Program-made: the position numbers and the translations under genes
Shown: positions 3,271-61,341 of the stretch, one piece after another
How the letters are laid out: each line of letters opens with the position of its first letter
Position numbering within the stretch: the stretch's first letter is position 1
The notes under the pieces: model-generated
Databases searched by the model: none
What the model saw: only the letters and a program-made list of their open reading frames with translations
Told to the model about the DNA's origin: nothing
Virus record (IMG/VR): IMGVR_UViG_3300045391_006247
Length of the DNA stretch: 64,000 nucleotides
Strand: one strand, 5' to 3'
Source of the DNA: a virus

Positions 3271-3544
3271 GTGTGCAAACTGTGTCAACCCTCACCAATA
3301 GGTTGCCACGGCTGAAAGTCTTGATATATCTACCTTGTTCCAACTGTATACAACTGTTCCAACCTCAAAAAAAGATTTAGTAAATATAAGAAAACGGCGA
3401 TCGCACACACCCCTAAAAACTTTGCTGTGAATTTCCCCTCTAAGGAAAACAGCTTGAACAGTTGCCACGGTTGGAACGGTTGAGACGGGGTAAGGGTTTG
3501 AAGCGTTCCAACCCCTAGCGATGAGTTGGAACGGGGGTTGGAAC
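3271..3544 (+). repeat. Dispersed ~300-bp ori-like repeat, copy A (non-coding)
   Basis: Colinear with the reverse complement of 58741-59030; contains GGTTGCCACGGCTGAAA, AACTGTTCCAACCTCAAA, TTAGTAAATATAAG and GGTTGGAAC iterons. Confidence 0.9.
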
Positions 3545-3671
3545 GGGGAATGGTGCCGTGGTGCGATCGGCTTTGCTTGACTGTGTAGAGTTGTTGATGC
3601 AGCGGCAATTACGGTGAGATTAGGTAAGAAAATAGTCGTAGTACATAAAGCAAGAAATCACTTAATGTCAC

Positions 3672-3718
3672 AAACCAAAATGCCCTCAACTTAGTCTAAG
3701 TTGAGGGCATTTTGGTTT
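3672..3718. terminator. 47-bp palindrome (23-bp arms, 1-nt centre), likely bidirectional terminator
   Basis: AAACCAAAATGCCCTCAACTTAG-T-CTAAGTTGAGGGCATTTTGGTTT, at the stop of 3717..3926. Confidence 0.6.
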
Positions 3719-3926
3719 AAGGTTCAGCCGCTCTCTTGCAGCTTTCCGAGTTGGGTTGATTTTGCTTTTTGTCAATCTCGCAAAGCGCTTTGTCTATTTT
3801 GCGAGTACCCTCCTCCGTTTTTTGAACTTCGGGCGATTTTGTGATGGATTGATATTGAATGTAAATTACAGCTGCAATTCCGGCAGTGGCGATCGCAAGC
3901 AAGGCAATTAAAAGAGGTTTAGGCAT
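3717..3926 (-). CDS. Small N-terminally anchored/secreted two-Cys protein; paralog of 34715..34921
   Basis: Hydrophobic N-terminus; EGTRKI...C...C shared with paralog. Confidence 0.8.
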   Translation of the reverse strand: MPKPLLIALLAIATAGIAAVIYIQYQSITKSPEVQKTEEGTRKIDKALCEIDKKQNQPNSESCKRAAEP

Positions 3927-3979
3927 GGGGTGATCAGATTAACTAGGTCTTACCCAAGGTAGCCGATCACCCCATTGTT

Positions 3980-4219
3980 TTATTGCTCTAGCGCTTCAAA
4001 GTAACGATACGCAACCAGCTTGTGCTCAACTCTCCAACGGTTCAACGTACCCATTACATCAGAAAAGCGATCAGTTTCCGTGAACAATTCAACCGTCAAT
4101 TCGTGCCCAGTTGTAACATGAACCAAAGTGTAAAGCCACAAATGATTTCCTTCAGCGCCAATCGTTTCATCAGCAGGGGATGCGGGGCGATCGAGTAAGG
4201 TTGTGCGTGAACGTGCCAT
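3980..4219 (-). CDS. Hypothetical protein
   Basis: 79-aa ORF divergent from the XRE gene, plausible composition. Confidence 0.6.
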   Translation of the reverse strand: MARSRTTLLDRPASPADETIGAEGNHLWLYTLVHVTTGHELTVELFTETDRFSDVMGTLNRWRVEHKLVAYRYFEALEQ

Positions 4220-4375
4220 AATAGTTGGGTTCCTGTTTTGGGACTGAAAGGCGGTTTCTTCTTTGCCGGAGTGAACCGCCTCTCTTATTTCCTAAAGATA
4301 ACACGATACTAGTATCACGTCAACAGCTAGTCATTATCATAGTATTGTATTATCATAGGATGGTACGATAAAAGG

Positions 4376-4600
4376 ATGAAAGTGATTAGCAAACTACAGT
4401 CGTTAATGGAAAGGCAAGAAGGACTTGATCAAAAGACTCTTGCAGCAAGAACTGGACTTAGCCCTACAACCGTAGGGAAGCTTTACCGTGGTCATTTTGA
4501 TCGCATCGACAATCACACAGTCACCACGCTGTGCAAGTATTTCAAGCTTAAATCTATAAGCGAACTCATAGAGATTCAATGGGAGAGTTCTGATGTCTAA
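4376..4600 (+). CDS. XRE/Cro-C1-type HTH regulator; paralog of 34118..34333
   Basis: KLQSLM...LAARTGLSPTTVGKLY...RID...LCKYF pattern. Confidence 0.85.
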   Translation: MKVISKLQSLMERQEGLDQKTLAARTGLSPTTVGKLYRGHFDRIDNHTVTTLCKYFKLKSISELIEIQWESSDV

Positions 4601-5351
4601 TTTGCAGCTTTTTGACCACGAATTTAACGGACGCAAAATCCGGCAGCGTTCAGAAGATGGTTACGTCAACTTAACCGACATGAGCAAAGCGGGAAGCAAA
4701 ACAGTTGCTTCATTTTTGCGACTCAAGGAAACAAAAGCCTACATTGCAGTTGTAGCCGCCGATGTGCAGATTCACACATCGGCAATTGTGCAAATTTCTA
4801 AAGGTGGAGACGATCAAACCAATCAGGGTACGTGGGCACATCATTTAGTGGCGATCGCGTTTGCTCGGCGTATATCTCCAGAATTTGCAGTTTGGGCTGA
4901 CAAGCAATTAACAAGAATCATCGACAACGACCCCACGCTGACGACAGAGTTGTTAGATCGGATGCCAGACAAAGCCGCAGCTGTGTTGATATCCGATCGC
5001 ATTGAGACAATGGAAGATCTGAGTGCTGTTGAGCTTGTTCAGCAAACAGCATCACAAAAAATTGCCGCATTGCTTGAAAAGGCTGGGTTGCCATACGGTG
5101 AATCTGTGCCAACCCCAAAACTTTCGGAGGAAAAATACGATCGAGCACTTAGTTCTAAACATGCCCATGAATCATGGCAGGTGATTGACGGGGTAACTTG
5201 GTTTTGTCCTCCTGGCACTGATACTTGGCAGGTTGATTGCGACACGAAAAATTATCAAGATTATTGCCTTTGGCGGGAGTGGTATCCAAAAAACAATTTG
5301 CCGTTAGCTCAATCAATTGAAGCTTTGCGTTTAATTAAATCGGTCAATTGA
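4593..5351 (+). CDS. KilA-N domain protein (antirepressor-like)
   Basis: FNGRKIRQRSEDGYVNLTDM...GTWAH..VAIAFARRISPEFAVW is a typical KilA-N signature. Confidence 0.85.
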   Translation: MSNLQLFDHEFNGRKIRQRSEDGYVNLTDMSKAGSKTVASFLRLKETKAYIAVVAADVQIHTSAIVQISKGGDDQTNQGTWAHHLVAIAFARRISPEFAVWADKQLTRIIDNDPTLTTELLDRMPDKAAAVLISDRIETMEDLSAVELVQQTASQKIAALLEKAGLPYGESVPTPKLSEEKYDRALSSKHAHESWQVIDGVTWFCPPGTDTWQVDCDTKNYQDYCLWREWYPKNNLPLAQSIEALRLIKSVN

Positions 5352-5403
5352 TGATGGTTTACCGCCTGAATTACAATAAATTCGTCCCCATTTCACCCGC
5401 CTC

Positions 5404-5649
5404 ATGCAAACGACAATCACCCAATCATTCGATCGCAATCCCCTGTTTCCTTCCAAAGAGAAATCAGCAGATCCTACCTCCCTCGTTTTGATCGAAGCAG
5501 GTGCCCCTTACAGGGTGTTGATGGTAAAAAAAGAGTCAGAAGTTAGAGGTAACGGCAATCCCGATCGCACTCTTCTTCTAGTTCAAGCGCAAGTTACCCC
5601 AGAACCGGGCGATGTTGCGTTTGCTTGGCTCCCAAAGGATAGAATATAG
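5404..5649 (+). CDS. Hypothetical protein
   Basis: 81-aa ATG ORF. Confidence 0.55.
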   Translation: MQTTITQSFDRNPLFPSKEKSADPTSLVLIEAGAPYRVLMVKKESEVRGNGNPDRTLLLVQAQVTPEPGDVAFAWLPKDRI

Positions 5650-5839
5650 GGATTCTAGCTGATTCTTTCCTCTGAACTTCCGAACGGATGCACGATCGCC
5701 CCTAAACAAGGCGATCGTTTTTTATGGCAAAGGGTAGCAGCCTGTTTGCTACCCTTTGCGATCGTTTTTGTTCGGTCACCCTCAAAGCGTTGCCAGACAA
5801 GGAGTTCAGCCTCCAATACTTGAAAGTCCGGTCACCTGT

Positions 5840-6031
5840 TCACTGCTTAGGTGCGCGATAAATCCTACGCCAGCCCGATCGCTCCAAGACATCTTGCCTC
5901 CCCATCGTGACCTTGTTTTCACCGTAATACCTCAGAGTGATACTGCCGAGCAAAGACCTCAAAACGATCGCTGTACTTTGATCGCGATCGTTTTGGACTT
6001 TATCTCCTTCTTGCCACCGGCTATCGTTCAA
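5840..6031 (-). CDS. Hypothetical protein
   Basis: 63-aa ORF starting right after the stop of the 1111-aa tail gene on the same strand. Confidence 0.4.
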   Translation of the reverse strand: MNDSRWQEGDKVQNDRDQSTAIVLRSLLGSITLRYYGENKVTMGRQDVLERSGWRRIYRAPKQ

Positions 6032-6033
6032 AC

Positions 6034-9000
6034 CTACGCCTTTGAAACCTCTAGGTTATCCACCCTGTATTTTGTTGCCCCAGCAGACACGGGTGAAGTC
6101 TTAATTGCGAACTGAAAATCTGTCGATGTCCCCGTTGCACCGATCGAAGTACTGTCAGCAGCGTTCGTGTCAACTTTAATTGAGGCATCAACTCCAGGAT
6201 TACACGAAAGGACGATTGAATACCATGTGCCAACAGATAGAGCAACGGTAGAATCGATCGTGTAACCTCCCCCGACATCATCAAAAATCGCAAGCCGCAA
6301 ACAGTTCACCGAGTTCCGATAGCTCAATGTCCACTCTTCATTGCCGAACATAATTAATGACGTTGCCGATCCGCTTGAAGGTTCGGCGTCAATATAAAAG
6401 TCAAACTTGATCCGCCAAGCCACAACTCCAAGGGATAGTCCCGTGTCTGTACTGGAGATAGAAGAAGTGTTGCTTATAATTGCGATCGCATTCCCTGATG
6501 TACCCGAAAGCAGAGAGCAGCCAGACCCCGACAAAACAAAACCGTTGATTGAGTCAACTTGGTTGGTCGCACTGCCCTCCATATCCCAAAACGCGATCGG
6601 TTCTAGAACGACAGGGGGTTCATACCATCCTTTAACCTCAGAATACAGAATACCTCCACGAGCCAATGCTCTAATAATCCATACCCTACCGGCAGTTGTC
6701 ACCAAGTTGGGGGCTGTTTCGTTGGGGAATCGCCACAGACTGCCAAACGTGACCGCATACCCCCCTGCGCTCGACTGTTTAAGAAGCAACTCATAATCCG
6801 CCCCATTGACAATCCCGATCGGGTTATCGATCAGGGTGTCGGCTTCAATATTGGTCTTGAATAAATTTGTTGTTGCAAGGTTTAGTGTAATAGTTGAGGC
6901 AGGTGCGATCGTTGTTATAGTTCCTGCCACAGGCTTTTGGAAGGTGTTTTGATGCTCTAAGATGGCGATCGTTTCTACCGCGCCACTGCTCTGCTGTCTT
7001 ATCTTCAAAGAGTCGCCTGAAGCAAACAGAGCGGTCTTCCCTGCGTCTGTGGTTGGAGGTTCAGTGATGCGGGTGAGAGCTAATCCACTGGAAGATTCCG
7101 CGCTCCCTGTCGCTCCGGCAACACCCGCACTCGTTACTCGTTTGTTGGTCGCGATCGTTGTTCCAGATGCCGCATTGCCCGCATAGTCTAGATTCTTTAG
7201 AGTGACTGCCGTTGTGGATGCGATCGAAACTACCTGGTAGGTTCCCCCTGTTTCGATGTAAACATTTACCCCAATTGCCATCCAGTTAGTATTTCCAACC
7301 GCAACAGAGATATTAGCCAATGCCGCAGATTGAACAAATGAAGCCGTTGTGCTTGTGTATGCTCCGGGTCCTGCTGGACCTGCCGGAGCCGCGATGCTTC
7401 CTCTTAGCTGCCATGTGTCGGTGGATATTTTTTCGTAAAGGTTGAGGACAGTCCCATCGGTAGCAATGCACTTGTCATTCTCTGTCCCATCTCCAGACGT
7501 TGGGGGCGTATCCCTCAGCAAAATATCTGAAGACTGCGCGATCGCATCTTGCAAGGCAATAAACTCAGGGATGCAGCCCAAAGATTCAGAGTGAGAAATC
7601 TTCGTGACGCGATCGTTTGAGTCGGGGAAGTAGTAAGCGATCGCAACTTGATAATCCCCTGTTGGCAGTGTCGAGGATGACGGCGAAACATCTTGAACCG
7701 TGGCATTAATCGTGTCGTACCCGAACAGGCAAAAATCAGAACTCGGGGAGGTAGGCAACGCTCCAACGATCGAACCACCAGAGAGGGTAATGATATCGAT
7801 CGTTCCTGTCGGGGCAACAGGGTCTAGCTGATAGATATTTCCTGTTGCCAACTCGACGATATAAACATAGATAAAGGGAACGTTGAAGTCTGCCGTAGTT
7901 CCCGCAATTCGATCGGGGTAATCTGACCTAACTGCCGTGGGATAATCGATCGCGAGTCTAATGCCATCGGTGCTACTCGCGATCGTCAGTGCGCTGCTCA
8001 GGGGGGATGCTGTGAATGTGCCTCCCACAGTTGAAACGATCGCTCTCACGGCTTCAGTTGTCAGGATAGTGCCAGAAGGCAAGCGATAGGCGATCGCCCC
8101 CGCCAGTGCGGCAGATACGGTGATTTTGAGGTTCGCCTGATCGGTAGGCAGTCCAATCAACTCGGTCTCACCCACGGATGGCGATCGGTATCCCCCGACA
8201 AGGCACTTGCCCGGTAATCGCTTCACCCCACCTGAGACAGGGACAATCCGCATCAAGTCACCATCAGGGAGCACAACATCCCCAACGATCGCCCATGACG
8301 AGTCGAGCTTGCCTAGCAACCCCTCCGGATATAACACAGTGGTGATTTGTGCGCCCTGTTGAATCACTGATTGAAGCTCAGCGGTCCTAAATCTAAATGT
8401 CAGTTCATACGCTGCTGCATACCCTTTCAGAAGGTCTTGAGGCAGTTCGACGGGTGAATCTGCGGCTTGCCATGTTATCGAGTCTCCTACGGTCGGAATC
8501 GAGGTGTTGAGCGTCCCCGTCGATCGCCTTACATACCCCAATAGCTTGAAGTAAGCACGACCTGAAAAAGCATCCGTGACGTTGCGACCGTTGGCTTTCA
8601 GTTGAAGAGTCAAGGATGTGCCTTGTGGTTCTGCCGCGCCACTGACCTCTTCTAGTCCGTTGGAAAACCACAGTTGAACAGGATATGAGTCTGACCCTGA
8701 ACCACCGTAAGCCGGAGGGGAATAGAGCACATCCTCGGGCAGGATGTTGATCAAAGGGCGATCGCATCCTCCCGCATCTGTCGTGGCAGCAAGATAGGTC
8801 GAGATGTTCACTAGACTCTCACTCACCCAATAGCCTGACGAAGCCCCATAAAGCCCTGACTCCGCGATCGGGTCGTATTTGACGTACTCGCTCGTGGATG
8901 CGATCAGTCGCGTCATGCCATACAGTAATCCAGATGTCGGCAAAGCGGCAGGATTGGCAACAGCAGGAACGATCGCGGTTTGAGAGTCCAAGGTCAAGTC

Positions 9001-9389: not shown

Positions 9390-9626
9390 TTACTGATCTA
9401 ATCCCAGCCAATCGCGATCGCTTTGTTCTACTGATTCGACTTCAATAGAAACGAAAGAATTAATTCGAGTTAAAAGAAATCCAACAAATGCTTGATCTGT
9501 CAAACCTGCCGGACGCAAAGAGGCAACAAGTTCCTTGAACGATTCATCCCCTTCAACGCTGAACGTATCCGCTGCTGCCGCTATAGACCCAATCCGATCG
9601 CTCATTCTGTAAAACGCTATTTTCAT
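9390..9626 (-). CDS. Small protein coupled to the kinase gene (candidate immunity/partner)
   Basis: 78 aa, ATGA overlap with 9623..11077. Confidence 0.7.
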   Translation of the reverse strand: MKIAFYRMSDRIGSIAAAADTFSVEGDESFKELVASLRPAGLTDQAFVGFLLTRINSFVSIEVESVEQSDRDWLGLDQ

Positions 9627-11077
9627 TTGAATCTTGCCTGCAATAAACTACGTTGTTCAGCCGTTAGTCCACCAAAAAAGTCTTGAAGTGAAGTGTCTTT
9701 TTTGGGTGGTTCCGGCTCATGCATAATGTCCCCTAATCTCACCCTGTTCTGAGATTTGCTGAGTTGTTCAATGCGATCGATTCTGGCTTCCAACCCCGAA
9801 GAATCTATGCCGGAAGCTTTTGCTGCACTCAATATCTCAGCTTTTGAGTTCAGGATTGACTGAACATCCTCATTGTTAAGCTCAAGATCTCTAACTTTTT
9901 GGTTTGAAGCCTTCCGAGGATTGGAGGTGTCGTAACCAAACTTGTCTCGAACCAACGTGTTGACAGCTATATCAAGCTTGTCTTTTGGTGTGCCCAAGTT
10001 TTTCTGAGTTACTTCATGAAAAGCGAAGCCATGATCAAACAAAACAGGACTGCCACTTCCATCGACACTAATGTTTGCAGCATGTCGATCTGTATTACCA
10101 ATGATGTAGTCAAAAGCTATTACCTTCAAAGCATCCCGATCGCCGATCTTTTTAATTGCTTTAAGGTTTCCAATATTAGAAACCTCGTCTTTTTCCAAAA
10201 ACGGCATCACAACTGCTGTCTTTTTCTTGACAGTCACCTTTTCGATCGGAACGGTGATGCCATCCAACCCCATTCGTTTAGCGATCTCATAAGCAAGAGT
10301 CTCAATCTTTGCTTCTTTTAAGGGTGTCTGCTTCACGAAATAATCTTTGCCGTCAATACTCGTTTTGGAAATTAAACCCAAATCACCGGCGCCCGATTGA
10401 ACTTTTAATTTTTCAAAAGTTGTTTTGTCAAATTGATCTTGAGACGGGAACTTAACGGCTCTCGACTTTGAAACTGTTTTGACTTGACTCTTTTCGGGTG
10501 TAGGCTTAACTTTTGGACTGCTTGGCTCAGCTTTGTGTGATTCAACAATAGCTTTCACAACCTCGGATTGCTGCGGTGTTGGCTTGTATCGACAGTTCAA
10601 GCTCCCACCCTGGCATTTTTTGCCGCACAGCATATTACCGGGTTTGCAGGTTGGTGTTTTCCTAGTTTTAGTTGTGGTAGATGCAAACTCGATCGCCTCC
10701 ACCCAGTCTCTGTCGTCGGCTTCATTAAACTCTGACATGTTGGGATTCACGGATTGAACAGGCATCAGCTTGTAATCCCAAGCTTCGGGGGACATCGTGA
10801 ATTGATAAAACTGAGATTTGGCAAGACTCAGCTTTTGCTCTGCTTTCCCTTTGATCGTGCTAGTAACAGTGTCGATCGTCAAGTCGAAGACACGTTGAAT
10901 CACACCCCCCACTTCTTCATCAAGAAGCGATCGCACTCTCTCTAAAACCTGCGGACTGCTAACGGTCGTCTCGGAAAACACAACAAGTGTTAACTTTCCC
11001 TCTTTAATTGATTGAAACAATCGCCCCAACTCAGCAAAAGCTTCAATTCTACTCGCCATCATATTTCTAACCCCCAA
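9623..11077 (-). CDS. Cargo-family paralog 3: shared N-terminal module plus PI3/4-kinase/HipA-like kinase domain
   Basis: YFVK, E.LAYEIAKRMGL, FDYIIGNTDRHAAN and LFDHG kinase motifs; N-terminus near-identical to 24796..26442; likely start is ATG at 11062 or 11059. Confidence 0.85.
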   Translation of the reverse strand: MGVRNMMASRIEAFAELGRLFQSIKEGKLTLVVFSETTVSSPQVLERVRSLLDEEVGGVIQRVFDLTIDTVTSTIKGKAEQKLSLAKSQFYQFTMSPEAWDYKLMPVQSVNPNMSEFNEADDRDWVEAIEFASTTTKTRKTPTCKPGNMLCGKKCQGGSLNCRYKPTPQQSEVVKAIVESHKAEPSSPKVKPTPEKSQVKTVSKSRAVKFPSQDQFDKTTFEKLKVQSGAGDLGLISKTSIDGKDYFVKQTPLKEAKIETLAYEIAKRMGLDGITVPIEKVTVKKKTAVVMPFLEKDEVSNIGNLKAIKKIGDRDALKVIAFDYIIGNTDRHAANISVDGSGSPVLFDHGFAFHEVTQKNLGTPKDKLDIAVNTLVRDKFGYDTSNPRKASNQKVRDLELNNEDVQSILNSKAEILSAAKASGIDSSGLEARIDRIEQLSKSQNRVRLGDIMHEPEPPKKDTSLQDFFGGLTAEQRSLLQARFK

Positions 11078-11478: not shown

Positions 11479-11825
11479 GTGTTCCAACCTGTTTATAAAT
11501 GCGTTCCAACCCATCGATCGAGGTTGACACGCCTGAAACCCTTGATTTATATAGGGCGTGTCAACCGTGTCAACCGTTCAAGCTGTTTTCCCTAGAGGGG
11601 AAATTTCTGCGCTGTTTTTCAGGGTGGGGAGAGACCACTGTAGTCTTATATTTACTAAGTCTTCTCTTTGAGGTTGGAACAGTTATATACAGTAAAGCCG
11701 GTGCATTGATTTATAAGGCTTTCAGCCGTGGCAACCTCAAAAGCAGGGTTGGAACAGGTGACTTCACCCCAAAAAAGCGATCGCGCAAAGTCTTGATTTA
11801 CTGCGGTTTTCACCCCGTTCCAACC
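11479..11825 (-). repeat. Dispersed ori-like repeat, copy B (non-coding)
   Basis: 30-bp exact match of 11571-11600 to 58823-58852; same core and iterons as other copies. Confidence 0.9.
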
Positions 11826-12741: not shown

Positions 12742-15159
12742 TCACTCATCAAAGCTCAACGTCACAGGGGGATTCAGATACAGCCCCAAAGACATACTCA
12801 CACCCCCCGAAGTGACCAACGATCGCCCTCCCACGACACACTGAATCGCCATTTCCTCTTCTAAAGATAAGACGACAAACAGTTTGCCAAGCAAGTGAAC
12901 GCGATCGCCCTCTTCAATCTCTGCCGCTGCTTGATGGCGTACAACAACCTGCCAAGTTTCCGTGCCCTTTGTGTTCTCGATGGATAATGCCACCTGTGCG
13001 CACGATCGCGCTTCCTCAAAATCAAACACTCCAGGGATTTGAATTGAGCCGTTCTCGGGGTCATCAGGGGTGTATCCGTTATTAGGCGAATTCAGTAGTG
13101 CCCTCAGTGAGGTTTGTGGCGCGGGTGGTTTTGGATCAGGGGGATTAGGGTTAGGGCGAACAATCTCCATTCGCGTGTGGGTCGATGGACGCCCTAGAAA
13201 CTCAGTTCTTCGCCCAATGTTCAAGGAATCCTTGAGGTCTTGCCCCTGACTGCCCGTTGTTTTGCTGTGGACGGTGTATTGCTCAAACTCCTTTTGCCAG
13301 GATTGCTCACTAACACCGCGATCGGGATAATTCACGACCACCCGTTTCACCTCATCAAACGCCCTGCCTGACGTTAAAACGGGTTTATTGGGGTCGGGTG
13401 AATCTGAGAACTCAGTCTCCGCAACCGATCGCTTTGTCAGAATCGCGTACTTTGGCTCAACCCAGTTGGGGTCGTCCTTTTGCCGTTTGATATCGGGATA
13501 CAGCCCCAAATAAGAGGCGAGAACATATCGGGTAGTGTCACTCGATCGAAGCCACTGCCACTGGTATGCCGCCCGCAGGTTATTCCCGTCATACACAACC
13601 CTGCCGTTACGGGTGATTACAGGGGCATATTGGGCTTTTATGGTCTCGATCGCATCTTGTTCTTGCTTTGCTCTTCCTAAATGCCTGCCGGTGATACTGA
13701 CCGATCGGAGATACCCCTCTGATTGGTCGTAGTTGTAAGACTCGTCTACTTCCTCAACTAATCCCCAAAATGCTTGAGGGTTAACTCCTGCACCTGTGTA
13801 GCGATACCAGTTCACTGTCACATCAGCAGTGGCAGAAATTCCTGAAACCTCAAAGTCATAAACCTGAGAACCTTTGAAGGTGAAGCCGTATTTAAATTTT
13901 TTCGCCTTGATGATCGTGCCATTTCTATAAAGGGTGCGCGTTCGTTCCTTTGTGATTCCCCCAGAATCAAAGTTATGCGATAAATTCCCGAGGCTCAACT
14001 TATTGCTTGCCAAACTGTTGAATTCTGGAGGTGCGTCTTCGGGAAACTCGTCGGCATCGTCAATCCAGATGGAAGTATTGCGGACTCGATCGCTCTCATT
14101 AGCGTCAGTGTCCAGCGTCAACCGAGTGTTTTTGTACTCGTTGGATAATTGATTGTTCTGACTCTGAGCTTCGTAATCCGCCCCTTTGCCGCTGAGGGTA
14201 ATCGCGATCGGACTCAATAAATCAGCCTTGGAAATCCAGTGAACGCGAGTTTTACCCCATTCACGAGTCTGGACATTGTTTTGTCCACTGTAAAAGACGA
14301 ATGATTTTTTACCGATCGCCCTTGATTCAAGCTCTGAGCCTAGCTGAGTTGTAACTGAAGCAGGGGTGCTGTAGCTCTGATTTAGTTTAATTGCCGCACC
14401 AGAGTAAGGCACCCCTGCAAGTTGAGCCAAACTCGAAACAGTCCCCCCATCGCGATCGATCGCATCTTTAACCTTGATTGATTCTGATAATTCCTCAACA
14501 AATCGCCCGGTCAGCGATACTTCCACCTGAATCCAGCCACCCGGATAAATCACCTCGGGTAATCGTTGAATCGCGATCGAGTCTACGCTGTAGCCAACCC
14601 CAAACGCCCCGATGCGCGATCGGTTTTTTAGCTGCTCTCTTACGTCCGGTTCGTTGGATGCGAGTGTGGTGAAAGTGAAAGAACCGGACGGTTGGCTTCC
14701 GAAACTACGCGATCGCTTGAAACTTCCGGTAATATTCCACTCTCCCCACCAATTTGGAGGACGTGTCAGCACTTCGGCGTCAGGAATTAAAACAGGGGGG
14801 TAGCTTGCAATTTGATAGTGAACAATTGCCGGAGTCGCGATCGGTGGAATAGGGAAGAAGGTTATTTCCCCTGTTGCCGTGTCCCAGCTGAATGAGTTCT
14901 GCTCAGGGGTGTTAGCTGTTGCAGGCTCGTAAGTTACTCCGCCAATCGTTATAGAGTCGATCGCTCCTACATCTTCTGGAGCCTCGATCGTGCCTGTGCT
15001 TGAAGTCGTTGTGATTATGGTGGCAGATAGGATTGTCGAAGTGCGATCGCCGTACATCAGTGATGCTCCGCCCTGTGCGATCGTTTCTACGACAGGTGCG
15101 CCGTTACCTGGGGATGCGATCGGGCTTAGGGGAAGTTCAGGGCTGTTGAGGGTGAGCAT
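12742..15159 (-). CDS. Large tail/baseplate hub-like protein
   Basis: Long ORF in the tail cluster; start moved to ATG 15159 (MLTLNSPE) to avoid overlap with the propeller gene. Confidence 0.65.
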   Translation of the reverse strand: MLTLNSPELPLSPIASPGNGAPVVETIAQGGASLMYGDRTSTILSATIITTTSSTGTIEAPEDVGAIDSITIGGVTYEPATANTPEQNSFSWDTATGEITFFPIPPIATPAIVHYQIASYPPVLIPDAEVLTRPPNWWGEWNITGSFKRSRSFGSQPSGSFTFTTLASNEPDVREQLKNRSRIGAFGVGYSVDSIAIQRLPEVIYPGGWIQVEVSLTGRFVEELSESIKVKDAIDRDGGTVSSLAQLAGVPYSGAAIKLNQSYSTPASVTTQLGSELESRAIGKKSFVFYSGQNNVQTREWGKTRVHWISKADLLSPIAITLSGKGADYEAQSQNNQLSNEYKNTRLTLDTDANESDRVRNTSIWIDDADEFPEDAPPEFNSLASNKLSLGNLSHNFDSGGITKERTRTLYRNGTIIKAKKFKYGFTFKGSQVYDFEVSGISATADVTVNWYRYTGAGVNPQAFWGLVEEVDESYNYDQSEGYLRSVSITGRHLGRAKQEQDAIETIKAQYAPVITRNGRVVYDGNNLRAAYQWQWLRSSDTTRYVLASYLGLYPDIKRQKDDPNWVEPKYAILTKRSVAETEFSDSPDPNKPVLTSGRAFDEVKRVVVNYPDRGVSEQSWQKEFEQYTVHSKTTGSQGQDLKDSLNIGRRTEFLGRPSTHTRMEIVRPNPNPPDPKPPAPQTSLRALLNSPNNGYTPDDPENGSIQIPGVFDFEEARSCAQVALSIENTKGTETWQVVVRHQAAAEIEEGDRVHLLGKLFVVLSLEEEMAIQCVVGGRSLVTSGGVSMSLGLYLNPPVTLSFDE

Positions 15160-15172
15160 GAGGGCGATCGGA

Positions 15173-16330
15173 CTAGTATTTATTGAGATAGCTAGATAGG
15201 GTAATGTTTGGCTTGTAAGTATTGGAAAACTGCCCGTAAATTCTCGCTGTAGTTGACTCACGAGGAATACAGAACACTCTGCCATCCAACATCAAAACTC
15301 CACCCTGGAAAGCAGCAGAGCCAGCAAATGCTCCCGATGGGGTGGTGACAGTGTCCGCGATCGGGTCATAAATCCGCGCAGTAGTTGAGTTTAAGGGAAC
15401 GCAAAAGACTCGTCCATCTGGCATCAAAACACCAGTAACAAAAGCGTTGCTACCCGGATAAGTCCCGACTGGTGTGACTAAAGTGTCAGTGACAGGGTCA
15501 TAAATCCGCGCCGTTGTAGAAGTCTGAGGAACACAAAACACTCTGCCATCGGGTAAAAGCACGCCACCCTGAAAAGAGTTCCCGCCTGGGTAGGTCCCTG
15601 TTGGTGTAGTTAAGGTGTTTGCGATCGGATCATAAATCCGCGCAGTGGTAGATGTTTGGGGAACACAAAACACTCGTCCATCTAGTAGTAATTGTCCACC
15701 CGCAAAAGAAGTTACTCCTGGATAAGTCCCTGCTGGGGTTGTGAGGGTATCGGTAACAGGGTCGTAAATCCGCGCAGTGGTTGAGTTGAATGGAACACAA
15801 AACACTCTGCCATCGGGCAAGAGTACGCCACCTTGGAAAGCGTTGACGGTTGGGTAAGTTCCACTCGGTGTGATTAGTGTATCCGCGATCGGGTCATAAA
15901 TCCGCGCAGTCATCGAGTTGGACGGCACGCAAAACACTCGCCCATCTTGTAGCAATACACCACCAATAAAAGCGTTTAACCCTGGATAAGTTCCTGAAGG
16001 AGTAGTGACGGTATCGGTAGCAGGGTTGTAAATTCTTGCAGATGTAGAACTTGCCGGAACACAAAATATTCTTCCATCCGGCAGTACCACCCCTCCTCTA
16101 AAAGCTGTTGACCCTGGATAGGTTCCGCCCGGTGTGATTAAGTTATTTGAGGTTAAAACAGTGGCGCTTTTTGTGCGGTTGAGATGCCTCAGAAATCTTT
16201 TTGATGCAGAGGGCTGTACTACCCGATCGCGTGTCATCCCAGATGTATCAGTGCGCTGAATCTGAGAAAATGCCTGAACTTTGGGCGATCGCAAGCTAGT
16301 GACAGCGCTCCAAGAAACAAGTCCTGGCAT
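15173..16330 (-). CDS. Seven-repeat Kelch-like beta-propeller protein
   Basis: Seven ~44-aa repeats TLTTPxGTYPGxxxFxGGVLLPDGRVFCVPxxSTTARIYDP. Confidence 0.85.
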   Translation of the reverse strand: MPGLVSWSAVTSLRSPKVQAFSQIQRTDTSGMTRDRVVQPSASKRFLRHLNRTKSATVLTSNNLITPGGTYPGSTAFRGGVVLPDGRIFCVPASSTSARIYNPATDTVTTPSGTYPGLNAFIGGVLLQDGRVFCVPSNSMTARIYDPIADTLITPSGTYPTVNAFQGGVLLPDGRVFCVPFNSTTARIYDPVTDTLTTPAGTYPGVTSFAGGQLLLDGRVFCVPQTSTTARIYDPIANTLTTPTGTYPGGNSFQGGVLLPDGRVFCVPQTSTTARIYDPVTDTLVTPVGTYPGSNAFVTGVLMPDGRVFCVPLNSTTARIYDPIADTVTTPSGAFAGSAAFQGGVLMLDGRVFCIPRESTTARIYGQFSNTYKPNITLSSYLNKY

Positions 16331-32062: not shown

Positions 32063-32420
32063 GGGTTGGAACAGGTTGCCACACCTTGATTTGCAAGGGT
32101 TTCAGCGATCGCATACTCTTGTCCGTGGCAACCTGTTCCAACCCATCAGGGGAGGTTGCCACGGCTGAAAAGCTTATAAATCAACAACTCCACCTTACTG
32201 TATATAACTGTTCCAACCTCAAAGGGAAGACTTAGTAAATATAAGACTACAGTGGTCACACTCATCCCGTTAAATCTCCCCTAAAACTGCTCAGGAAATT
32301 TCCCTCTAGGGAAAACCGAGGGAACGGTTGACACGGTTGGAACACCCTATATCCCGCAAGGCTTTCAGCCGTTCCAACCTACTCGAAGGGGTTGGAACAC
32401 ACCTCAAAACAGGTTGACAC
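32063..32420 (+). repeat. Dispersed ori-like repeat, copy C (non-coding)
   Basis: 32132-32170 is a 39-bp exact reverse complement of 58971-59009. Confidence 0.9.
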
Positions 32421-32486
32421 ACCCCAGAATCACCCCCAAAAGGCGCGATCTCCCTTCCAAGTTTCGCAATTACGGAATGAAGTAAG

Positions 32487-34125: not shown

Positions 34126-34333
34126 CTGAAGCTCCTTCAATTTCATAAAGCTCATCTAAGCTGCTGAGTTCAAAAAACTCCAGCAGCTTTTTTGCTGTGT
34201 TGCAATCAATACGGCTAACAGTGGGATGCCGATACAACATCCCAACAATGCTTGGGTTTAAGCCAGTGGCTTTAACAACCTGCGTCTGGTTCAAACCCCG
34301 ATCGTTCATCAATTTTCTCAATTTGCAAATCAT
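34118..34333 (-). CDS. XRE/Cro-C1-type HTH regulator; paralog of 4376..4600
   Basis: KLRKLM...TGLNPSIVGMLY...RID pattern. Confidence 0.85.
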   Translation of the reverse strand: MICKLRKLMNDRGLNQTQVVKATGLNPSIVGMLYRHPTVSRIDCNTAKKLLEFFELSSLDELYEIEGASDV

Positions 34334-34444
34334 CTCTTTTCCTCCGAAACCTTTCTCTATTTTAACCCGTTATCGCGATAATGCGCGATGCAAACAAAAA
34401 AGATTCCGTTAAATCGCGATCGCCCCTCACCACTATTGCCAATT

Positions 34445-34486
34445 GCGTAATTGCGCAATATCATTAAACCTATAGCGCAATTACAC
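34445..34486. promoter_or_regulatory. Paired operator
   Basis: GCGTAATTGCGC at 34445 and GCGCAATTACAC at 34475 between divergent genes. Confidence 0.7.
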
Positions 34487-34503
34487 AAAAGCGAGGGCAA
34501 AGG

Positions 34504-42023: not shown

Positions 42024-42076
42024 CACCCGATCGCCGCTTTCCCAAGGGCGGCTTTTTGTTGGGTTGTTGAGCGATC

Positions 42077-42119
42077 GCGTAATTACACAATTAATTTCTT
42101 GACAATTGCGTAACTGCGC
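42077..42119. promoter_or_regulatory. Paired operator
   Basis: GCGTAATTACAC at 42077 and GCGTAACTGCGC at 42108. Confidence 0.7.
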
Positions 42120-42292
42120 GATTACCATAAAAGACATGGGGCACAGGATGCCCGGTGGCGAAAGCCGAGATTTCAAGCCTTGAAAATCGAATACCTCCCA
42201 GGCGGAACAGAGCACCGCCGAGCGTCCCAAAGACTCAACAGGGACGGGGAGCAGAGGTTCAGTGTTTTACAAAAAAATTAGCAGGAGGTGTT

Positions 42293-44026: not shown

Positions 44027-44060
44027 TCAGATCGCCTTACAAAATTAATGTTTGATTATT

Positions 44061-44102
44061 GCGTAATTACGCACTATTATTAAATTAATAACGTAATTAC
44101 GC
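44061..44102. promoter_or_regulatory. Paired operator (includes the perfect palindrome)
   Basis: GCGTAATTACGC at 44061 and ACGTAATTACGC at 44091. Confidence 0.75.
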
Positions 44103-44258
44103 AATTATGTCTCAATTAATCTTTTCGATACTCCTAAGCGCGATTGCCCTTTCCCTGCCGTTTGTGGCGTTAGGTGCGATCGGTTGTAGGGTTAGGGATT
44201 GTCCTCCGGGGCAGTTTGATGGTTCTTGTAGATGTGTTGATAAATAGGAGGAAGGACG

Positions 44259-47468: not shown

Positions 47469-48245
47469 TCAAGCTGAAACCATGCGCGATCGGGTTCTGA
47501 CGTACCGCACGGGACATCTTCCCACCTTGATCAGGTCACCGCGCGCCATAAGGCTACGTACCGCACGAAGTTCTTCTATCCTGTGGAAGTTTGCGACCTC
47601 ATAGCTATACACCTCATCTCTGAACTCAAATCGGCTCAGAACTCTTAACTCATCCTTGGTATAGGGCTTTGAGTAATCAAAACTGTCCTCGCGAACAGGG
47701 ATAGCCTGCTTTGGTGGCTGGGGTTTCTTAGTCGTGACACGAACTTTTTTAGGCTTTTCGACCTTGGGTGGTTGAGCGACGATTGCATTTCCCAAGGAAT
47801 AAACAACGGGAGTTCTGCCGGTGCCGTGTGCTTTGACTTCCCCTGAAGATTTTAGATAGCCCAACAACTTGTAGAGTGTGTCTCGCGAAAACTCAACCCT
47901 TTCCTGTAGCTCCTGAAACGTCAGGGGTTTGTCTACGATCAAATCCTTGATTAACTGCAAGCCTTTGAACCATGTTTTGTCACACTTAGGGGATACCCAG
48001 GTAAGAGGAAATTCGTAGCCGGGAGCGGCATAATAAGAAAAGTTGCTTGTGTCTAGACGCCCTCTTTCAATCCGCCCTTGCTTGACAAGGATTTGAACGT
48101 GGTCTTTGACCGTAGAAATTGAAACATCAATCCGATCGGAGATCTCCCTAATGCTGAGGGGTTTGTCCGTTTCGCAGCACAGCTTTTCTATTCTTTCCTT
48201 GGTGTCAGTTTTCATAGCTAGTGTAGGTGGATAGGTGAACAGCAA
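47469..48245 (-). CDS. Tandem winged-HTH DNA-binding protein
   Basis: PLSIREISDRIDVSISTVKDHVQILVKQG and PLTFQELQERVEFSRDTLYKLLGYLKSSG. Confidence 0.75.
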   Translation of the reverse strand: MLFTYPPTLAMKTDTKERIEKLCCETDKPLSIREISDRIDVSISTVKDHVQILVKQGRIERGRLDTSNFSYYAAPGYEFPLTWVSPKCDKTWFKGLQLIKDLIVDKPLTFQELQERVEFSRDTLYKLLGYLKSSGEVKAHGTGRTPVVYSLGNAIVAQPPKVEKPKKVRVTTKKPQPPKQAIPVREDSFDYSKPYTKDELRVLSRFEFRDEVYSYEVANFHRIEELRAVRSLMARGDLIKVGRCPVRYVRTRSRMVSA

Positions 48246-54195: not shown

Positions 54196-54199
54196 AGTT

Positions 54200-55637: not shown

Positions 55638-55650
55638 TAAATCTTTGATT

Positions 55651-55693
55651 GCGTAATTACACAACAATACTATCTTAAATAACGTAACTACGC
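55651..55693. promoter_or_regulatory. Paired operator
   Basis: GCGTAATTACAC at 55651 and ACGTAACTACGC at 55682. Confidence 0.7.
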
Positions 55694-56038
55694 AATAGTA
55701 GAACGCCAAGACGCCACCAAAATCCGATCGCGCTCTATCAATTCTTCGCGCCATGCCAGCAGCAGGGATACTGCCTCTTCAAACTCAGCACCGAATCGAC
55801 AAATCTTAGACTCGATCTCCCCTGTTGGCTTGTACTGCCAAGGTAAGTCGTGGTATTCGCGCCAGACTGAGCCGTAGGGAAGCCAATAGGCGATCGGGTC
55901 TAAGACGCTATGAAAGTTCTGGGTGGGGTCGTAGGGGGTAAATATGCCCTTCTGCATGTCGATACAAGTGCAGATGATGTAGGGGCGATCGGATTTTGGG
56001 GTGGGGGTGTCGAGGGTTAAGGTGAGTTGTTGGGTCAT
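55688..56038 (-). CDS. Hypothetical protein
   Basis: 116 aa, ATGA coupling. Confidence 0.6.
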   Translation of the reverse strand: MTQQLTLTLDTPTPKSDRPYIICTCIDMQKGIFTPYDPTQNFHSVLDPIAYWLPYGSVWREYHDLPWQYKPTGEIESKICRFGAEFEEAVSLLLAWREELIERDRILVASWRSTIA

Positions 56039-56226: not shown

Positions 56227-56435
56227 CCAATCGCCTCCAATTGTGAATGCCACCAATAAGCCGATCGCCCTTCCCGATCTAGCCTGTAGTACGGTTCTGA
56301 CTCACTCCGCATCAATTTCAAGGGGCGATTGCCGTCAAACCCTGTGTTGCCTGCCACGCAAGCCATCACTACTTCGTATTGCAGGGCGGGATTGCCTTTG
56401 AGTTGAACGCAATCGCCCGGTTGGAATGGGGTCAT
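56223..56435 (-). CDS. Hypothetical protein
   Basis: Start at ATG 56435 (MTPFQPGD). Confidence 0.6.
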   Translation of the reverse strand: MTPFQPGDCVQLKGNPALQYEVVMACVAGNTGFDGNRPLKLMRSESEPYYRLDREGRSAYWWHSQLEAIG

Positions 56436-56944
56436 GCGATCGCCTCCCCGTTTTCCATGTCGCACAACAACGAATGCGCGATTAATCCCGCATCAGCCCT
56501 GTTGTGGTTGCGTTTAACCGATCGCGGAGCCTTGTATATCAGGCTATGGCGACACTCAGGATAGAGCGCGATTAATTGCGCGATCGATGCATCTTTTGAC
56601 TCTCCTGTTAACCCTGACGATCGTTTCCACTTGGCAGCAGGGACACACTCAACGGGAATGCCGAGGGTTTGCAGGACACTAACGCACATCTGCTGATGCT
56701 TGATTAGGGATAGGACGCGCCAAACAGAGCCCTTTTGAATATCTCCCCACCAAATCGTTTGGTCTTCTATGCGACCAATACAGGACAAGTGCAGGAAGGG
56801 AGAAACGATCGCGGATAATGATTTCTCTTCATTGAGTCCGGGTAGGTCTTGGATTGCGATCGCGCCATCAGGGGTGATAATCGCGATCGCGCCTTTGGAG
56901 TTTTCGGCTACGCCTGGGTCGATGCCGATGATGACTGGCTTCAT
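56432..56944 (-). CDS. RuvC-like Holliday junction resolvase
   Basis: IIGIDPG, IED, VPAAKWK, RADAGLIA acidic motifs. Confidence 0.8.
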   Translation of the reverse strand: MKPVIIGIDPGVAENSKGAIAIITPDGAIAIQDLPGLNEEKSLSAIVSPFLHLSCIGRIEDQTIWWGDIQKGSVWRVLSLIKHQQMCVSVLQTLGIPVECVPAAKWKRSSGLTGESKDASIAQLIALYPECRHSLIYKAPRSVKRNHNRADAGLIAHSLLCDMENGEAIA

Positions 56945-58223: not shown

Positions 58224-58567
58224 GCTGCCTTCCTCTCGCGTAGTCTTGTAAGTCCCAATCGCTGTTGTGGGGTAAGCGCTTCCCATACCTGCAACTTTTG
58301 GGCAGGGGTGAGATGGGTTAGTAAGTCCATATCTTCTACAGAAACGCTCTCTAGAATCGCGATCGCCACTGCGGTGAGGGTTTCTATCTCCGACTCGTTT
58401 AACGCGCTCTCAGAGCGATCGGGAGAGCAATCAGCGAGCATTGCAGGCGTGTTATTGGGCAATCCCATCAGAACTACCTCGCCATTCTTTTTTAATCGTC
58501 GGGTGACGGTGAAGGCTCCGTGCTGTTTATGAAAGGCGCGATCGCCCACGTTCGGAATCCAGGACAT
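58220..58567 (-). CDS. Hypothetical protein
   Basis: 115 aa, first gene after the paired operator at 58583. Confidence 0.65.
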   Translation of the reverse strand: MSWIPNVGDRAFHKQHGAFTVTRRLKKNGEVVLMGLPNNTPAMLADCSPDRSESALNESEIETLTAVAIAILESVSVEDMDLLTHLTPAQKLQVWEALTPQQRLGLTRLRERKAA

Positions 58568-58582
58568 AAATCATTCCTTGTT

Positions 58583-58624
58583 GCGTAACTACGTAATATT
58601 GTAGCAACAATCGCGTAAGTACGT
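58583..58624. promoter_or_regulatory. Paired operator
   Basis: GCGTAACTACGT at 58583 and GCGTAAGTACGT at 58613. Confidence 0.7.
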
Positions 58625-61341
58625 CAAAAAGGTTCAGCGGTTGCCAAAAATTCCTTGATTTCCTCTTCACTCATCTTCTTAAAGTCGATCGGCTCGTCTT
58701 TTTGGTGGTGTCCGTTGCTGTTTGAGGGGGCGATCGGAGTGTGTTCCAACCCCTGTTCCAACCCCTTTGAGTAGGTTGGAACGCTTGAAACCCTTGCTGT
58801 GCTTGAACCGTTCCAACCGTGGCAACCGTTCAAGCTGTTTTCCCTAGAGGGGTCAGAGTTCTCTTGTAATTGGGGGGTGGTTGGCTCACTCTCTTCTTCT
58901 TTATTTACTAAATCTTTCTTTGAGGTTGGAACAGTTATACACAGTTGGAACAAACTTGATTTTTCAAGGGTTTCAGCCGTGGCAACCTCCCCTGATGGGT
59001 TGGAACAGGCTGACACGGGGGTTGGAACGGCTTCATCTGGCTTCTCCCAGACTCGGGTTGGAACTCCGTCAATCCGTTTCTTCTTGCACACCCACCCCAT
59101 CGATCGGAGGGTGTCAGCAACCCGCATCTGTGCAGCTTTGTCGTGCTTGCTCTTTTCCAATTCAACGCAATTCTCAAGGATGCCTGACACGGTGACATGC
59201 TGAGCCATTACAAGATACTCACGGATGTAAGACGCCCAAGCATCCTCTGATTGATAGTCGTGGGCAATCTCGTCGGCAGCAAGCTCTTCCACTCCCCACA
59301 GATGCCAATGCACCCCACCTTTGTACAGTTGCATTGCTGCCGCCCAAATCCGATCGCGCTCCTCAATTAGGGTGGATGTGTCAATCTGCTTGATCGAGGG
59401 GTGGACGGGGATAATCCAAAATCGACGGTTCCCGGTCGAGTCGTTCAGGAATTCGTCCTGGTTGGTTGTGCCCACAATCACCGATCGCCGTGGCATATCC
59501 ACCACCGATCGCGCATAGGGAGGGCGAACCTTGTCGTTGGCAGAGGATAGGAATGATTTTGTTTGGCTGACATCTTTCCGTTTGAACACCGTCTCAAGCT
59601 CTGCCCACTCCATGAACCAAGTTTGATGGAGTTTTAACTTTTCGTCTTTGTCGCCAACGTTGCCCAAAGAATCGTCAAACCAATCTCCCCCTGCTAGGGC
59701 TTTAAAAAAGCTAGACTTCCTGACGCCCTGCTTACCCTGAAGAATTAGAGCGGAGTCATGCTTACAACCAGGCTGAAGAACTCGGGCACAGGCTGCAATC
59801 AGAAAACGAATCACAAAAATTGTGTAGATGGGGTCAGATTGCCCGAAGTAGCGATCGGCAATACACCGCAAAATTTCTAGAGAGCCTTCCTTCTCCCCAT
59901 GCTGCTCATAGACTTTGTTGAGATACTCGGCTACAGGGTGGTATGAATTTTGTTTAGCAATTTTGACCACCAATCCGCTGACGTCTTCGGCTCCAGAAGC
60001 AATAAACAAGCCGTAATCAATCATCAGGTCAGCGCGTGCCGAATCAACGTCTAGCTTCTCCCCATCTAGCTCAACGATACCCCTCAGTTCGTTGTAGCGA
60101 AGCCGATCGCCCATCAATCTCTTGATTCGCTTGTAGTCGGCAACCAACTTTTGATCGTTCTCATCTGGCTCCAAATCTTCCGCAATCTTTCCCTTAAATT
60201 CCGTAACTCCGGAAACCTTGGACGCAGAAACATCAGCCATAGCAGTTTCAATCCCTTTTTCAATGATTTTCCGAACGAACGCAGCACCCTTCTGACTCAA
60301 GACATCATCAATCCCCTTGCCCGATCGTTTATCCCACTTCGCGACCCCAACCTTGCACCCCTTCGCCCGCAGCAAATTCCCCGTCGATCGAATTGCAGCC
60401 CTGACTGCGTCACGAGTCGTTTCCTTTTCGTCCTGGTCGTAGCAAAAAACGATCGGGCGACCTTCCGAAGCCATCGCCTCAATTTCAGGGATTAATCGCG
60501 CAGGTAAGTTTTTAACGTCATCCTTCCGCCTGTAAGCCCCCCAAATGCCAGGAATGGCGATCGCGTTATACCCCAAAGAAACCAACGCACCCGCCTTCTT
60601 TCCCCCTTCAACGAGGATTAAAGGGATGCTTGGGGCGTTCTTTACCTTCACCCAACGATCGGGCTTTGTGGGGTCTTCTAAAAATATGGCTCCAGTGTCA
60701 ACCTGGTTGGGGTTGACGTATTTGACAAGCTTGTCTGGCTTTTGTGTGTCAGGGCGAGGTTGGTTTGGCTTCAACTGCCCCCAATCTTCTCTGCGGCTCC
60801 AGTTATTCAGGGGATCTAATCCAGTAAGCCACCACCCCCCATCGCCGTCGACTAGATTTTGATTTTGGTTCAGAATTCGCTTGAGTGGCTCTGTGGGATA
60901 TGACTTGACGTTTTGAATCTTCTCCGAAACTTCCTCGCAGATGATCTGCAACGCCAGTTCCCCATCAACCGATCGCACATTGGCGGCAACAATCTCGGGG
61001 TTGACTCCAGATGCAATCCACTCATCCCAATGGGGTTGGGTGATGTGACTAGGACGGGCGATCGGGTGTTTGTCAGTGTTAATAAAAACTGACTCGCTTA
61101 CCTTCTTAAACTTTGCTGCCGACAACCCTGACAGCTCAAATGCTTTTTCAATGTGCCGATCGGCGTCAAATCCTGGATACTTCAAGCCATTGCCAAGGTC
61201 AGCCAGCCGCCGCATTCTCCATTCGGGAATTCCGCACTTCTCCGCCTCAGACTTGACCAAAGCATCGGTGTAATACGGATTAGTCAGTGAATCTTTCCGT
61301 AAAAGCGCGATCGATGCTATAATTTGTTCAAAGTTTTGCAT
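58624..61341 (-). CDS. Primase-helicase: DUF3854-like Toprim domain plus VapE-type SF3 helicase
   Basis: ILVEGGKKAGAL, FCYDQD, KGIDD (Toprim); PGCKHD..LILQGKQGVRKSSF and TTN..EFL.DSTGNRRFW (VapE). Confidence 0.92.
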   Translation of the reverse strand: MQNFEQIIASIALLRKDSLTNPYYTDALVKSEAEKCGIPEWRMRRLADLGNGLKYPGFDADRHIEKAFELSGLSAAKFKKVSESVFINTDKHPIARPSHITQPHWDEWIASGVNPEIVAANVRSVDGELALQIICEEVSEKIQNVKSYPTEPLKRILNQNQNLVDGDGGWWLTGLDPLNNWSRREDWGQLKPNQPRPDTQKPDKLVKYVNPNQVDTGAIFLEDPTKPDRWVKVKNAPSIPLILVEGGKKAGALVSLGYNAIAIPGIWGAYRRKDDVKNLPARLIPEIEAMASEGRPIVFCYDQDEKETTRDAVRAAIRSTGNLLRAKGCKVGVAKWDKRSGKGIDDVLSQKGAAFVRKIIEKGIETAMADVSASKVSGVTEFKGKIAEDLEPDENDQKLVADYKRIKRLMGDRLRYNELRGIVELDGEKLDVDSARADLMIDYGLFIASGAEDVSGLVVKIAKQNSYHPVAEYLNKVYEQHGEKEGSLEILRCIADRYFGQSDPIYTIFVIRFLIAACARVLQPGCKHDSALILQGKQGVRKSSFFKALAGGDWFDDSLGNVGDKDEKLKLHQTWFMEWAELETVFKRKDVSQTKSFLSSANDKVRPPYARSVVDMPRRSVIVGTTNQDEFLNDSTGNRRFWIIPVHPSIKQIDTSTLIEERDRIWAAAMQLYKGGVHWHLWGVEELAADEIAHDYQSEDAWASYIREYLVMAQHVTVSGILENCVELEKSKHDKAAQMRVADTLRSMGWVCKKKRIDGVPTRVWEKPDEAVPTPVSACSNPSGEVATAETLEKSSLFQLCITVPTSKKDLVNKEEESEPTTPQLQENSDPSRENSLNGCHGWNGSSTARVSSVPTYSKGLEQGLEHTPIAPSNSNGHHQKDEPIDFKKMSEEEIKEFLATAEPF
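58741..59030 (-). repeat. Ori-like iteron region inside the 3' end of the primase-helicase gene (copy D)
   Basis: Many GTTCCAACC/GGTTGGAAC and GGTTGCCAC units in both orientations around an AT-rich core. Confidence 0.85.

Follow-up and report, generated by a model that had tools for sequence, protein, structure and literature searches.

A 70-kb cyanobacterial phage, found in one public run, a soil metagenome, carries four copies of a ~270–290-bp repeat module. Three are non-coding, and the fourth is contained in the terminal part of the primase-helicase gene. The stretch that we analysed (the window, 64,000 nucleotides) comprises bases 4961–68960 of the 69,840-bp IMG/VR virus record IMGVR_UViG_3300045391_006247, which is rated 99% complete. 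The four elements are probably copies of an iteron-type origin module that serves the phage's own DUF3854-VapE primase-helicase and follows the Pri-Rep design of Staphylococcus aureus pathogenicity islands (SaPIs) and phage-inducible chromosomal islands (PICIs). The in-gene copy would be the ancestral origin, and the three others would be complete ~280-bp duplicates in intergenic DNA that have been kept by selection. We tentatively take these duplicates to be auxiliary origins, that is, additional helicase-loading sites.

Four copies of a repeat module

A four-way alignment bears out the four copies listed in a preliminary description of the sequence and refines their cores:

3282–3545, plus strand: copy A, non-coding candidate origin module, with the unit spacing nearest to that of copy D
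11481–11763, minus strand: copy B, non-coding candidate origin module, with an outlying unit at 11817–11825
32064–32421, plus strand: copy C, non-coding candidate origin module, with an extra outer repeat pair at 32064–32082
58743–59028, minus strand: copy D, in-gene candidate origin module, with an outlying unit at 59056–59064; encodes residues ~770–867

Copy D lies in frame within the last 135 codons of a 905-residue open reading frame (ORF; 58624–61341, minus strand), the primase-VapE gene, as first described. Copies A, B, and C contain stops and frameshifts when read in D's frame. They end exactly at the ends of the module and do not include the coding sequence that flanks D; the flanks of the copies are unrelated to each other (17–40% identity). 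Two exact tracts reported earlier, 39 bp between C and D (32132–32170 and 58971–59009) and 30 bp between B and D (11571–11600 and 58823–58852), are correct, and the motif order said to be common to all copies extends to orientation and spacings.

The module is built of 9-bp GGTTGGAAC / GGTTGCCAC units on two dyad arms that flank an AT-rich tract. The pattern GGTTGSMAC occurs 35 times in the window, compared with 2.4 expected; none of 100 shuffles reached this count, and 30 of the 35 matches fall within the four modules. No fifth copy exists in the whole 69,840-bp record, which also holds no units outside the window.

Read in the orientation of the element, every copy begins with two inverted units, 20 bp from start to start. 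The next unit, embedded in AACTGTTCCAACCTCAAA, follows after 35+19 bp in A and D and after 55 bp in B and C, and is succeeded by the AT-rich tract TTAGTAAATATAAGA, which is identical in A, B, and C. A variable stretch of ~105 bp then closes in the conserved box CCCCTCTAGGGAAAACAGCTTGAAC, after which come a tandem pair of units 9 bp apart and 35 bp that hold AAGGSTTTCA. On the right side, a second inverted pair, again 20 bp apart, precedes the last unit, located at +12 bp in A and D or +22 bp in B and C. The GCCAC/GACAC variant of the unit occupies the same positions in every copy. The left and right arms are mutual inverted repeats of ~45 bp, 80% complementary, with 168 bp between them in D. 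The AT-rich 15-mer is a candidate DNA-unwinding element:

3377–3391, plus strand: TTAGTAAATATAAGA, copy A
11644–11658, minus strand: TTAGTAAATATAAGA, copy B
32232–32246, plus strand: TTAGTAAATATAAGA, copy C
58897–58911, minus strand: variant of the 15-mer, copy D

A 40-nt segment around this tract is 62–70% A+T, compared with ~52% in the whole window, and the unit map places at least two units on each side of the AT-rich region, in opposite directions.

Two inverted arms around a 168-bp centre, present in four dispersed copies, would also suit a non-autonomous element resembling a miniature inverted-repeat transposable element (MITE), which the preliminary description had considered, or a dispersed centromere like the four dispersed sop sites of phage N15. 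We regard both as very improbable. The copies show no consistent target-site duplications, and their ends are fuzzy, with extra units at variable distances. Searches of 185,579 species genomes and of IMG/VR found the arm pattern only in the phage's own record, which speaks against a MITE; an 18-mer search of viral contigs returned just two single-unit chance matches. Spacers inside the arms do not covary. A Pfam/PHROGs scan took the window ORFs of at least ~55 residues, excluding a few short ORFs and three ORFs of at least 100 residues wholly outside the window; among the scanned ORFs there is no transposase, integrase, ParA, or ParB, and no DnaB-type helicase, gp39-like loader, or DNA polymerase either.

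Two further candidates were rejected. A consensus RNA fold of the module only mirrors its dyad symmetry, with nearly all pairs invariant and a covariation term of −0.12 kcal/mol; the window has no Rfam matches and no tRNAs. Each copy overlaps an antisense ORF of 92–141 residues, but the starts, ends, and frames of these ORFs differ, and that of C is out of frame.

Conservation and history of the copies

To avoid circularity, unit columns of the alignment were defined in D only, and invariance was scored among A, B, and C only. These three copies are invariant at 54 of 63 unit columns (86%), compared with 103 of the 202 other columns (51%; Fisher p = 4e-7). Pairwise identity is 86–98% in the unit columns, 56–71% in the rest of the core, and 17–40% in the flanks. 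Divergence is therefore not evenly spread, and the earlier impression that motifs are conserved while spacers drift holds in numbers. This pattern argues for selection on both the repeats and the AT-rich tract in A, B, and C.

The same contrast in invariance disfavours the view that rearrangements left the non-coding copies behind as neutral remnants of the 3' end of the gene, now in decay. The stops and frameshifts of A, B, and C would be expected of such fragments, and the nearest relative (locus L014, 53% identity) retains protein-level homology to the left part of D and, in tblastn, even to copy A. However, the spacings are kept to the base and the copies end exactly where the module ends, so that we consider decay highly unlikely.

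The copies are mosaic: depending on which 30 columns of the alignment are compared, the closest pair is C-D, A-D, B-C, or B-D. This pattern suggests either gene conversion among the copies or an intricate history. Conversion by itself would not have preserved the units in particular.

The primase-helicase and its relatives

The gene that contains copy D encodes a protein with the following parts:

58624–61341, minus strand: primase-helicase gene (905 residues), with DUF3854 (Toprim-like) at residues 230–353 and a VapE-like superfamily 3 (SF3) helicase at residues 491–697
59038–59244, minus strand: predicted winged-helix domain, residues ~700–768, the presumed repeat reader, directly upstream of copy D
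58639–58668, minus strand: conserved C-terminal helix, residues ~892–901, motif S-E-E-E-I-x-E-F-L

Pfam identifies the helicase as VapE-like_dom (9.4e-73) and the primase part as DUF3854 (2e-40). In a phmmer search of the PDB, residues 430–645 match 7PDS_A, a chain of the SaPI1 Rep1–DNA complex, with E 6.1e-27. This is the only solved relative; no PDB chain except 7PDS matched the helicase or the winged-helix part at E ≤ 1. An AlphaFold2 (AF2) model based on a 47-sequence alignment is confident over residues 640–769, with a predicted local distance difference test score (pLDDT) of 84–97 at residues 650–769; single-sequence structure prediction was poor (pLDDT 39). The predicted fold of the C-terminal domain has a helix-helix-helix-hairpin topology, and VIA-align gave its winged-helix part Z-scores of 5.6–7.2 to many winged-helix DNA binders and of 6.3 to residues 290–467 of 7PDS_A.

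Residues ~782–879, within the D-encoded segment, have a pLDDT below 50 and are predicted to be disordered. The short helix that follows is conserved: its motif recurs at the ends of the long-tailed cyanobacterial homologues of loci L018, L019, L020, L022, L098, L099, L102, and L103. The family motif reads [ST]-[DE]-E-[EQ]-[IL]-x-E-F-[LW]-x-Y-L; in the phage protein only the last helix is left, after the linker encoded by the candidate origin. Conservation of this helix downstream of copy D indicates that the reading frame through the module is really translated. The helix could be a partner-docking motif, and in the AF2 model copy D appears to correspond to a disordered linker between it and the winged helix.

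By protein comparison, no close relatives were found in IMG/VR, and an identical protein is not on record elsewhere. Homologues come from 80 metagenome loci and 11 loci of genomes, cyanobacterial ones among them, and the 3' end of each gene was scanned for over-represented 9-mers. At least 33 of the ~90 relatives have a clear cluster of 5–12 units of a 9-mer of their own, in both orientations, located inside the 3' end of the gene or at most ~20 bp past the stop. The repeat word is lineage-specific, and many words resemble GGTnGGAAC (AGGTTGGAA, GGTAGGAAC, GGTTAGGAC, GGTTGGGAC, and GGCAGGAAC). Of two distant homologues, that of L015 contains CTACTCAGG 11 times in the last 410 bp of the gene, and that of L016 has a ACACTACCT repeat array at the same place. 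Because the relatives carry their own clusters at the same position of the gene, copy D is very probably the cognate origin of the family, with the in-gene or gene-end location being ancestral and A, B, and C being derived from D.

Extra modules recur in the relatives. L016, a 13-kb contig (Joint Genome Institute, Ga0598287_0001075), has clusters at 2295–2650 and 4192–4479 besides the in-gene cluster at 7571–7844, and the three have a homologous ~130-bp core in common. Its genes at 1190–7914 encode a XisA/C-like recombinase, a Csx3-like protein, a cI-like helix-turn-helix (HTH) protein, and the DUF3854-VapE primase-helicase; the contig may be a P4-like integrative satellite or a plasmid of a cyanobacterium. 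In L103, an inverted, near-identical second module lies ~3 kb away from the in-gene module; in L023, the contig end truncates a second cluster. Since L016 (three modules) and L103 (two) carry extra full modules with different words, these comparisons suggest that whole-module copying is a repeated evolutionary solution and not an accident.

Besides the units, the modules share the box CAGCAAGGGTTT, which adjoins the inner units in copy D (58788–58799), in L016 (2358–2369), and in L103 (8935–8946 and 12035–12046) despite the different repeat words. Weaker forms (AAGGSTTTCA) are present in all four copies of the window and are inverted in the left arms. A box common to modules with differing words argues for deep homology of the module itself across D, L016, and L103. 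It may be a conserved origin element with a reader other than the specificity-determining part of the winged helix.

Proposed origin function, genomic context and parallels

SaPI Reps are self-loading initiator-helicases in which a C-terminal winged helix reads the iterons. The SaPI ori directly follows rep at its 3' side; its centre is AT-rich and is flanked on each side by at least two iterons, in opposite directions (PMC9371898). The phage system shares with SaPIs and PICIs a homologous SF3 VapE-type self-loading helicase (E 6e-27 to SaPI1 Rep1, PDB 7PDS), a C-terminal winged helix, here predicted, and, at the gene's 3' end, an AT-rich tract flanked by short repeats of opposite orientation. 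As in SaPI5 PriRep5, the helicase is fused to a primase domain. Unlike in SaPIs, this domain is DUF3854 (Toprim-like), the units are 9 bp rather than 5–6 bp long, the candidate origin lies inside the reading frame rather than after the stop, and the carrier is a 70-kb phage with four modules rather than a satellite with one.

We infer from this likeness that the 9-bp GGTTGGAAC / GGTTGCCAC units are binding sites of the C-terminal winged helix of the primase-helicase. Oppositely oriented units on both arms would position self-loading SF3 helicase rings on either side of the AT-rich tract; the tract would then melt, the rings would load, and the fused primase domain would prime. On a circularised or concatemeric genome the modules are ~8, 21, 27, and 14 kb apart. 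The preliminary description had proposed auxiliary origins or sites like crr of phage P4, read by the primase-helicase; this proposal is supported by the SaPI Rep homology, the family-wide clusters at the 3' end, the selection on the copies, and the recurrence of extra modules in L016 and L103. We lean towards auxiliary origins because the whole module, AT-rich tract included, is conserved in A, B, and C.

The extra copies could instead be bound by the primase-helicase without firing and serve as cis partner sites for D, through crr-like looping or enhancement, through titration or handcuffing, or as fork roadblocks that turn replication from the theta mode to concatemer formation. Control iterons of plasmids titrate or handcuff their initiator. 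P4 alpha is reportedly a primase, an SF3 helicase, and a C-terminal origin-binding domain in one protein, and crr is said to be another group of these repeats at a distance of several kb, likewise bound by alpha and active in cis. The phage has a comparable arrangement, with distant clusters of the presumed repeats of its initiator on the same molecule (three extra modules, 8–27 kb apart), and L016 and L103 likewise combine an in-gene cluster with nearby clusters. By the same accounts, P4 ori lies outside the alpha gene and crr is a repeat cluster, not a full origin copy; the PDB search, in which full-length alpha was not compared directly, revealed no similarity to P4 alpha.

A roadblock role has a parallel in phage SPP1. 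Its oriL lies inside the initiator gene 38 and its oriR in an intergenic island among late genes; gp38 binds both, and each has repeats and an AT-rich element for unwinding (PMC6316719). For oriR, the proposal is that bound gp38 halts the fork and that a Holliday-junction resolvase together with an exonuclease restarts replication (PMC3485210, PMC6316719). Three enzymes encoded by the phage bear on such a role and are listed here with one further protein:

56432–56944: Holliday-junction resolvase gene
33430–34155: Cas4-like nuclease gene
61390–63204, minus strand: UvrD/PIF1-like superfamily 1 (SF1) helicase gene, directly upstream of the primase-helicase gene
47469–48245, minus strand: gene of a tandem winged-helix protein (258 residues) with weak O-like/DnaD-like matches, an alternative candidate repeat binder

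Like SPP1, the phage has one candidate origin in its initiator gene and a similarly organised copy (B) in an island that interrupts late genes. Unlike the phage protein, SPP1 gp38 is a separate origin binder of a different protein family that needs the loader gp39 and the DnaB-type helicase gp40, and SPP1 has two copies rather than four. The layouts are thus alike, but the phage is not a member of the SPP1 protein system. Copies A and B, in opposite orientations, flank a point of transcription convergence at ~5650/6034, and C is located at a divergent switch, an arrangement that might suit fork stalling but on which we place no weight. A site that only binds the protein would need neither an AT-rich tract nor non-repeat boxes, yet A, B, and C retain both along with the rest of the module. 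We consider partner sites that do not fire the second most likely role of the extra copies, less probable than auxiliary origins.

Several observations weigh against reading the four copies as origins served by the primase-helicase. Most relatives have a single cluster in their visible sequence (loci of 7–22 kb), so that one module is evidently enough. In L014, the UvrD-like and primase-helicase genes are syntenic with those of the phage, but protein and DNA homology, with several synonymous changes, stops at the AT-rich tract. Its gene keeps only the left half of the in-gene module with few recognisable repeats, and no extra copy is present in the 15.9 kb of L014 that were read. GC skew of the phage tracks the transcription blocks, with neither an origin nor a terminus visible in it. 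The winged helix is assigned from a predicted model whose Z-scores are only moderate, and a Foldseek search of the PDB gave no match at E ≤ 0.001 (E-values of 0.05 or more). Another DNA binder of the phage, such as the tandem winged-helix protein, may be the reader. This protein was also considered as a second initiator system and rejected, since there is no repeat array near its gene.

The surroundings of the copies raise the question of gene regulation. Copy A lies between a terminator-like hairpin (3225–3250) and a perfect 23-bp hairpin (3672–3718). Copy B is located in a 1.6-kb island of small non-structural ORFs within the late block, between an 847-residue gene (12742–15285) and a cargo kinase gene (9623–11077). 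Copy C occupies the divergent intergenic region between a small-terminase-like gene (31440–31934, minus strand) and a gene on the plus strand (32487–33371). Modules could be operators for the tandem winged-helix protein or for a KilA-N protein (4593–5351) and control the neighbouring late operons, in which case copy D would be a further operator; replication-coupled late control had been raised earlier as an alternative. C lies 130 bp upstream of the small-terminase-like gene, which heads the structural block, B is inside the late region, A, B, and D are co-oriented with local transcription, and the phage encodes several HTH or winged-helix proteins. However, no module contains a sigma-70-like promoter, and late control finds no support. 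Co-orientation of the two informative copies has a chance of ~0.25, and the missing repeat array at 47469–48245 speaks against that protein as the operator's ligand. Dozens of relatives have such clusters, with lineage-specific words, where the primase-helicase gene ends, which ties the repeats to the primase-helicase and not to late genes. We therefore regard an operator role as improbable.

The window contains CGATCG 418 times (every 153 bp) and the full octamer of the highly iterated palindrome HIP1, GCGATCGC, 86 times, an abundance in keeping with a host among the cyanobacteria. GCGATCGG stands on either side of copy A (3261–3268 and 3563–3570), and CGATCG lies at most 40 bp from the left border of A, B, and C. 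The chance of one site per 40-bp interval is 0.22, and a link between HIP1 and module borders is suggestive only.

Other repeats of the window are separate from the module. A second family, built on the palindrome ATTGCGTAATTACGCAAT, is located in intergenic spots of the early and middle regions (34441–34488, 42074–42123, 44058–44106, 55648–55697, 58580–58610, and 63188–63237). Near the primase gene, the best promoter-like site (TTGACG-18-TACAAT, 58627–58598, minus strand) coincides in part with the copy at 58580–58610; a phage repressor probably uses the family as its operator/promoter motif. At 15219–16124, an ORF of the tail/fibre region (15173–16330, minus strand) contains seven tandem 132-bp (44-codon) repeats with 60–73% identity, which look like a repeated structural domain. 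A 271-bp direct repeat (10677–10947 and 26072–26342, 80% identity) is an N-terminal module common to kinase-type and J-domain-type putative cargo genes.

Origins inside initiator genes are known from other systems. The lambda ori lies within gene O and that of N15 within repA, with the repeats in frame in a linker-like part of the protein; unlike the phage, each has a single origin, and lambda O is not a helicase. The N-terminal DUF3854 is also found in the cyanobacterial plasmid Rep proteins CyRepA1 and CyRepA2 (pSYSA Slr7037 and pCC5.2 ORF B), with 31–38% identity over ~30% of the protein. The CyRepA helicase, in contrast, is DEXDc and not VapE-like. Autonomous replication needs no more than the CyRepA2 ORF and its upstream region (PMC10079941), a result that would agree with an origin in or beside the gene; that study maps no CyRepA origin and describes no multi-copy one.

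Each element of the design has precedents: iteron origins of the SaPI type, origins located within initiator genes, and, in SPP1 and P4, a further copy or repeat cluster at another site. New are four complete, selected copies in one phage and the independent recurrence of extra modules, with different words, in relatives; in our literature search, no published phage had more than two iteron-origin modules. The most far-reaching version, in which the phage replicates from four equivalent origins with self-loading helicases, duplication is a recurrent selected strategy of cyanobacterial DUF3854-VapE replicons, the modules convert each other, and the pair around the point of transcription convergence acts as fork traps or concatemer switches, is conceivable, but we think it doubtful. 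Copy D would exemplify an in-frame origin, embedded in its own initiator as a disordered linker that joins two functional parts of the protein. With one protein and a ~280-bp site, and an N-terminal domain in common with the broad-host-range CyRepA family of plasmid Reps, the system offers candidate replicon parts for cyanobacterial vectors. If the copies fire, the family would provide a natural set of cognate winged-helix/repeat-word pairs for the study of origin specificity and a tractable model of multi-origin replication in a bacterial virus. If the four-origin reading is true, this phage would be a truly multi-origin bacterial virus.

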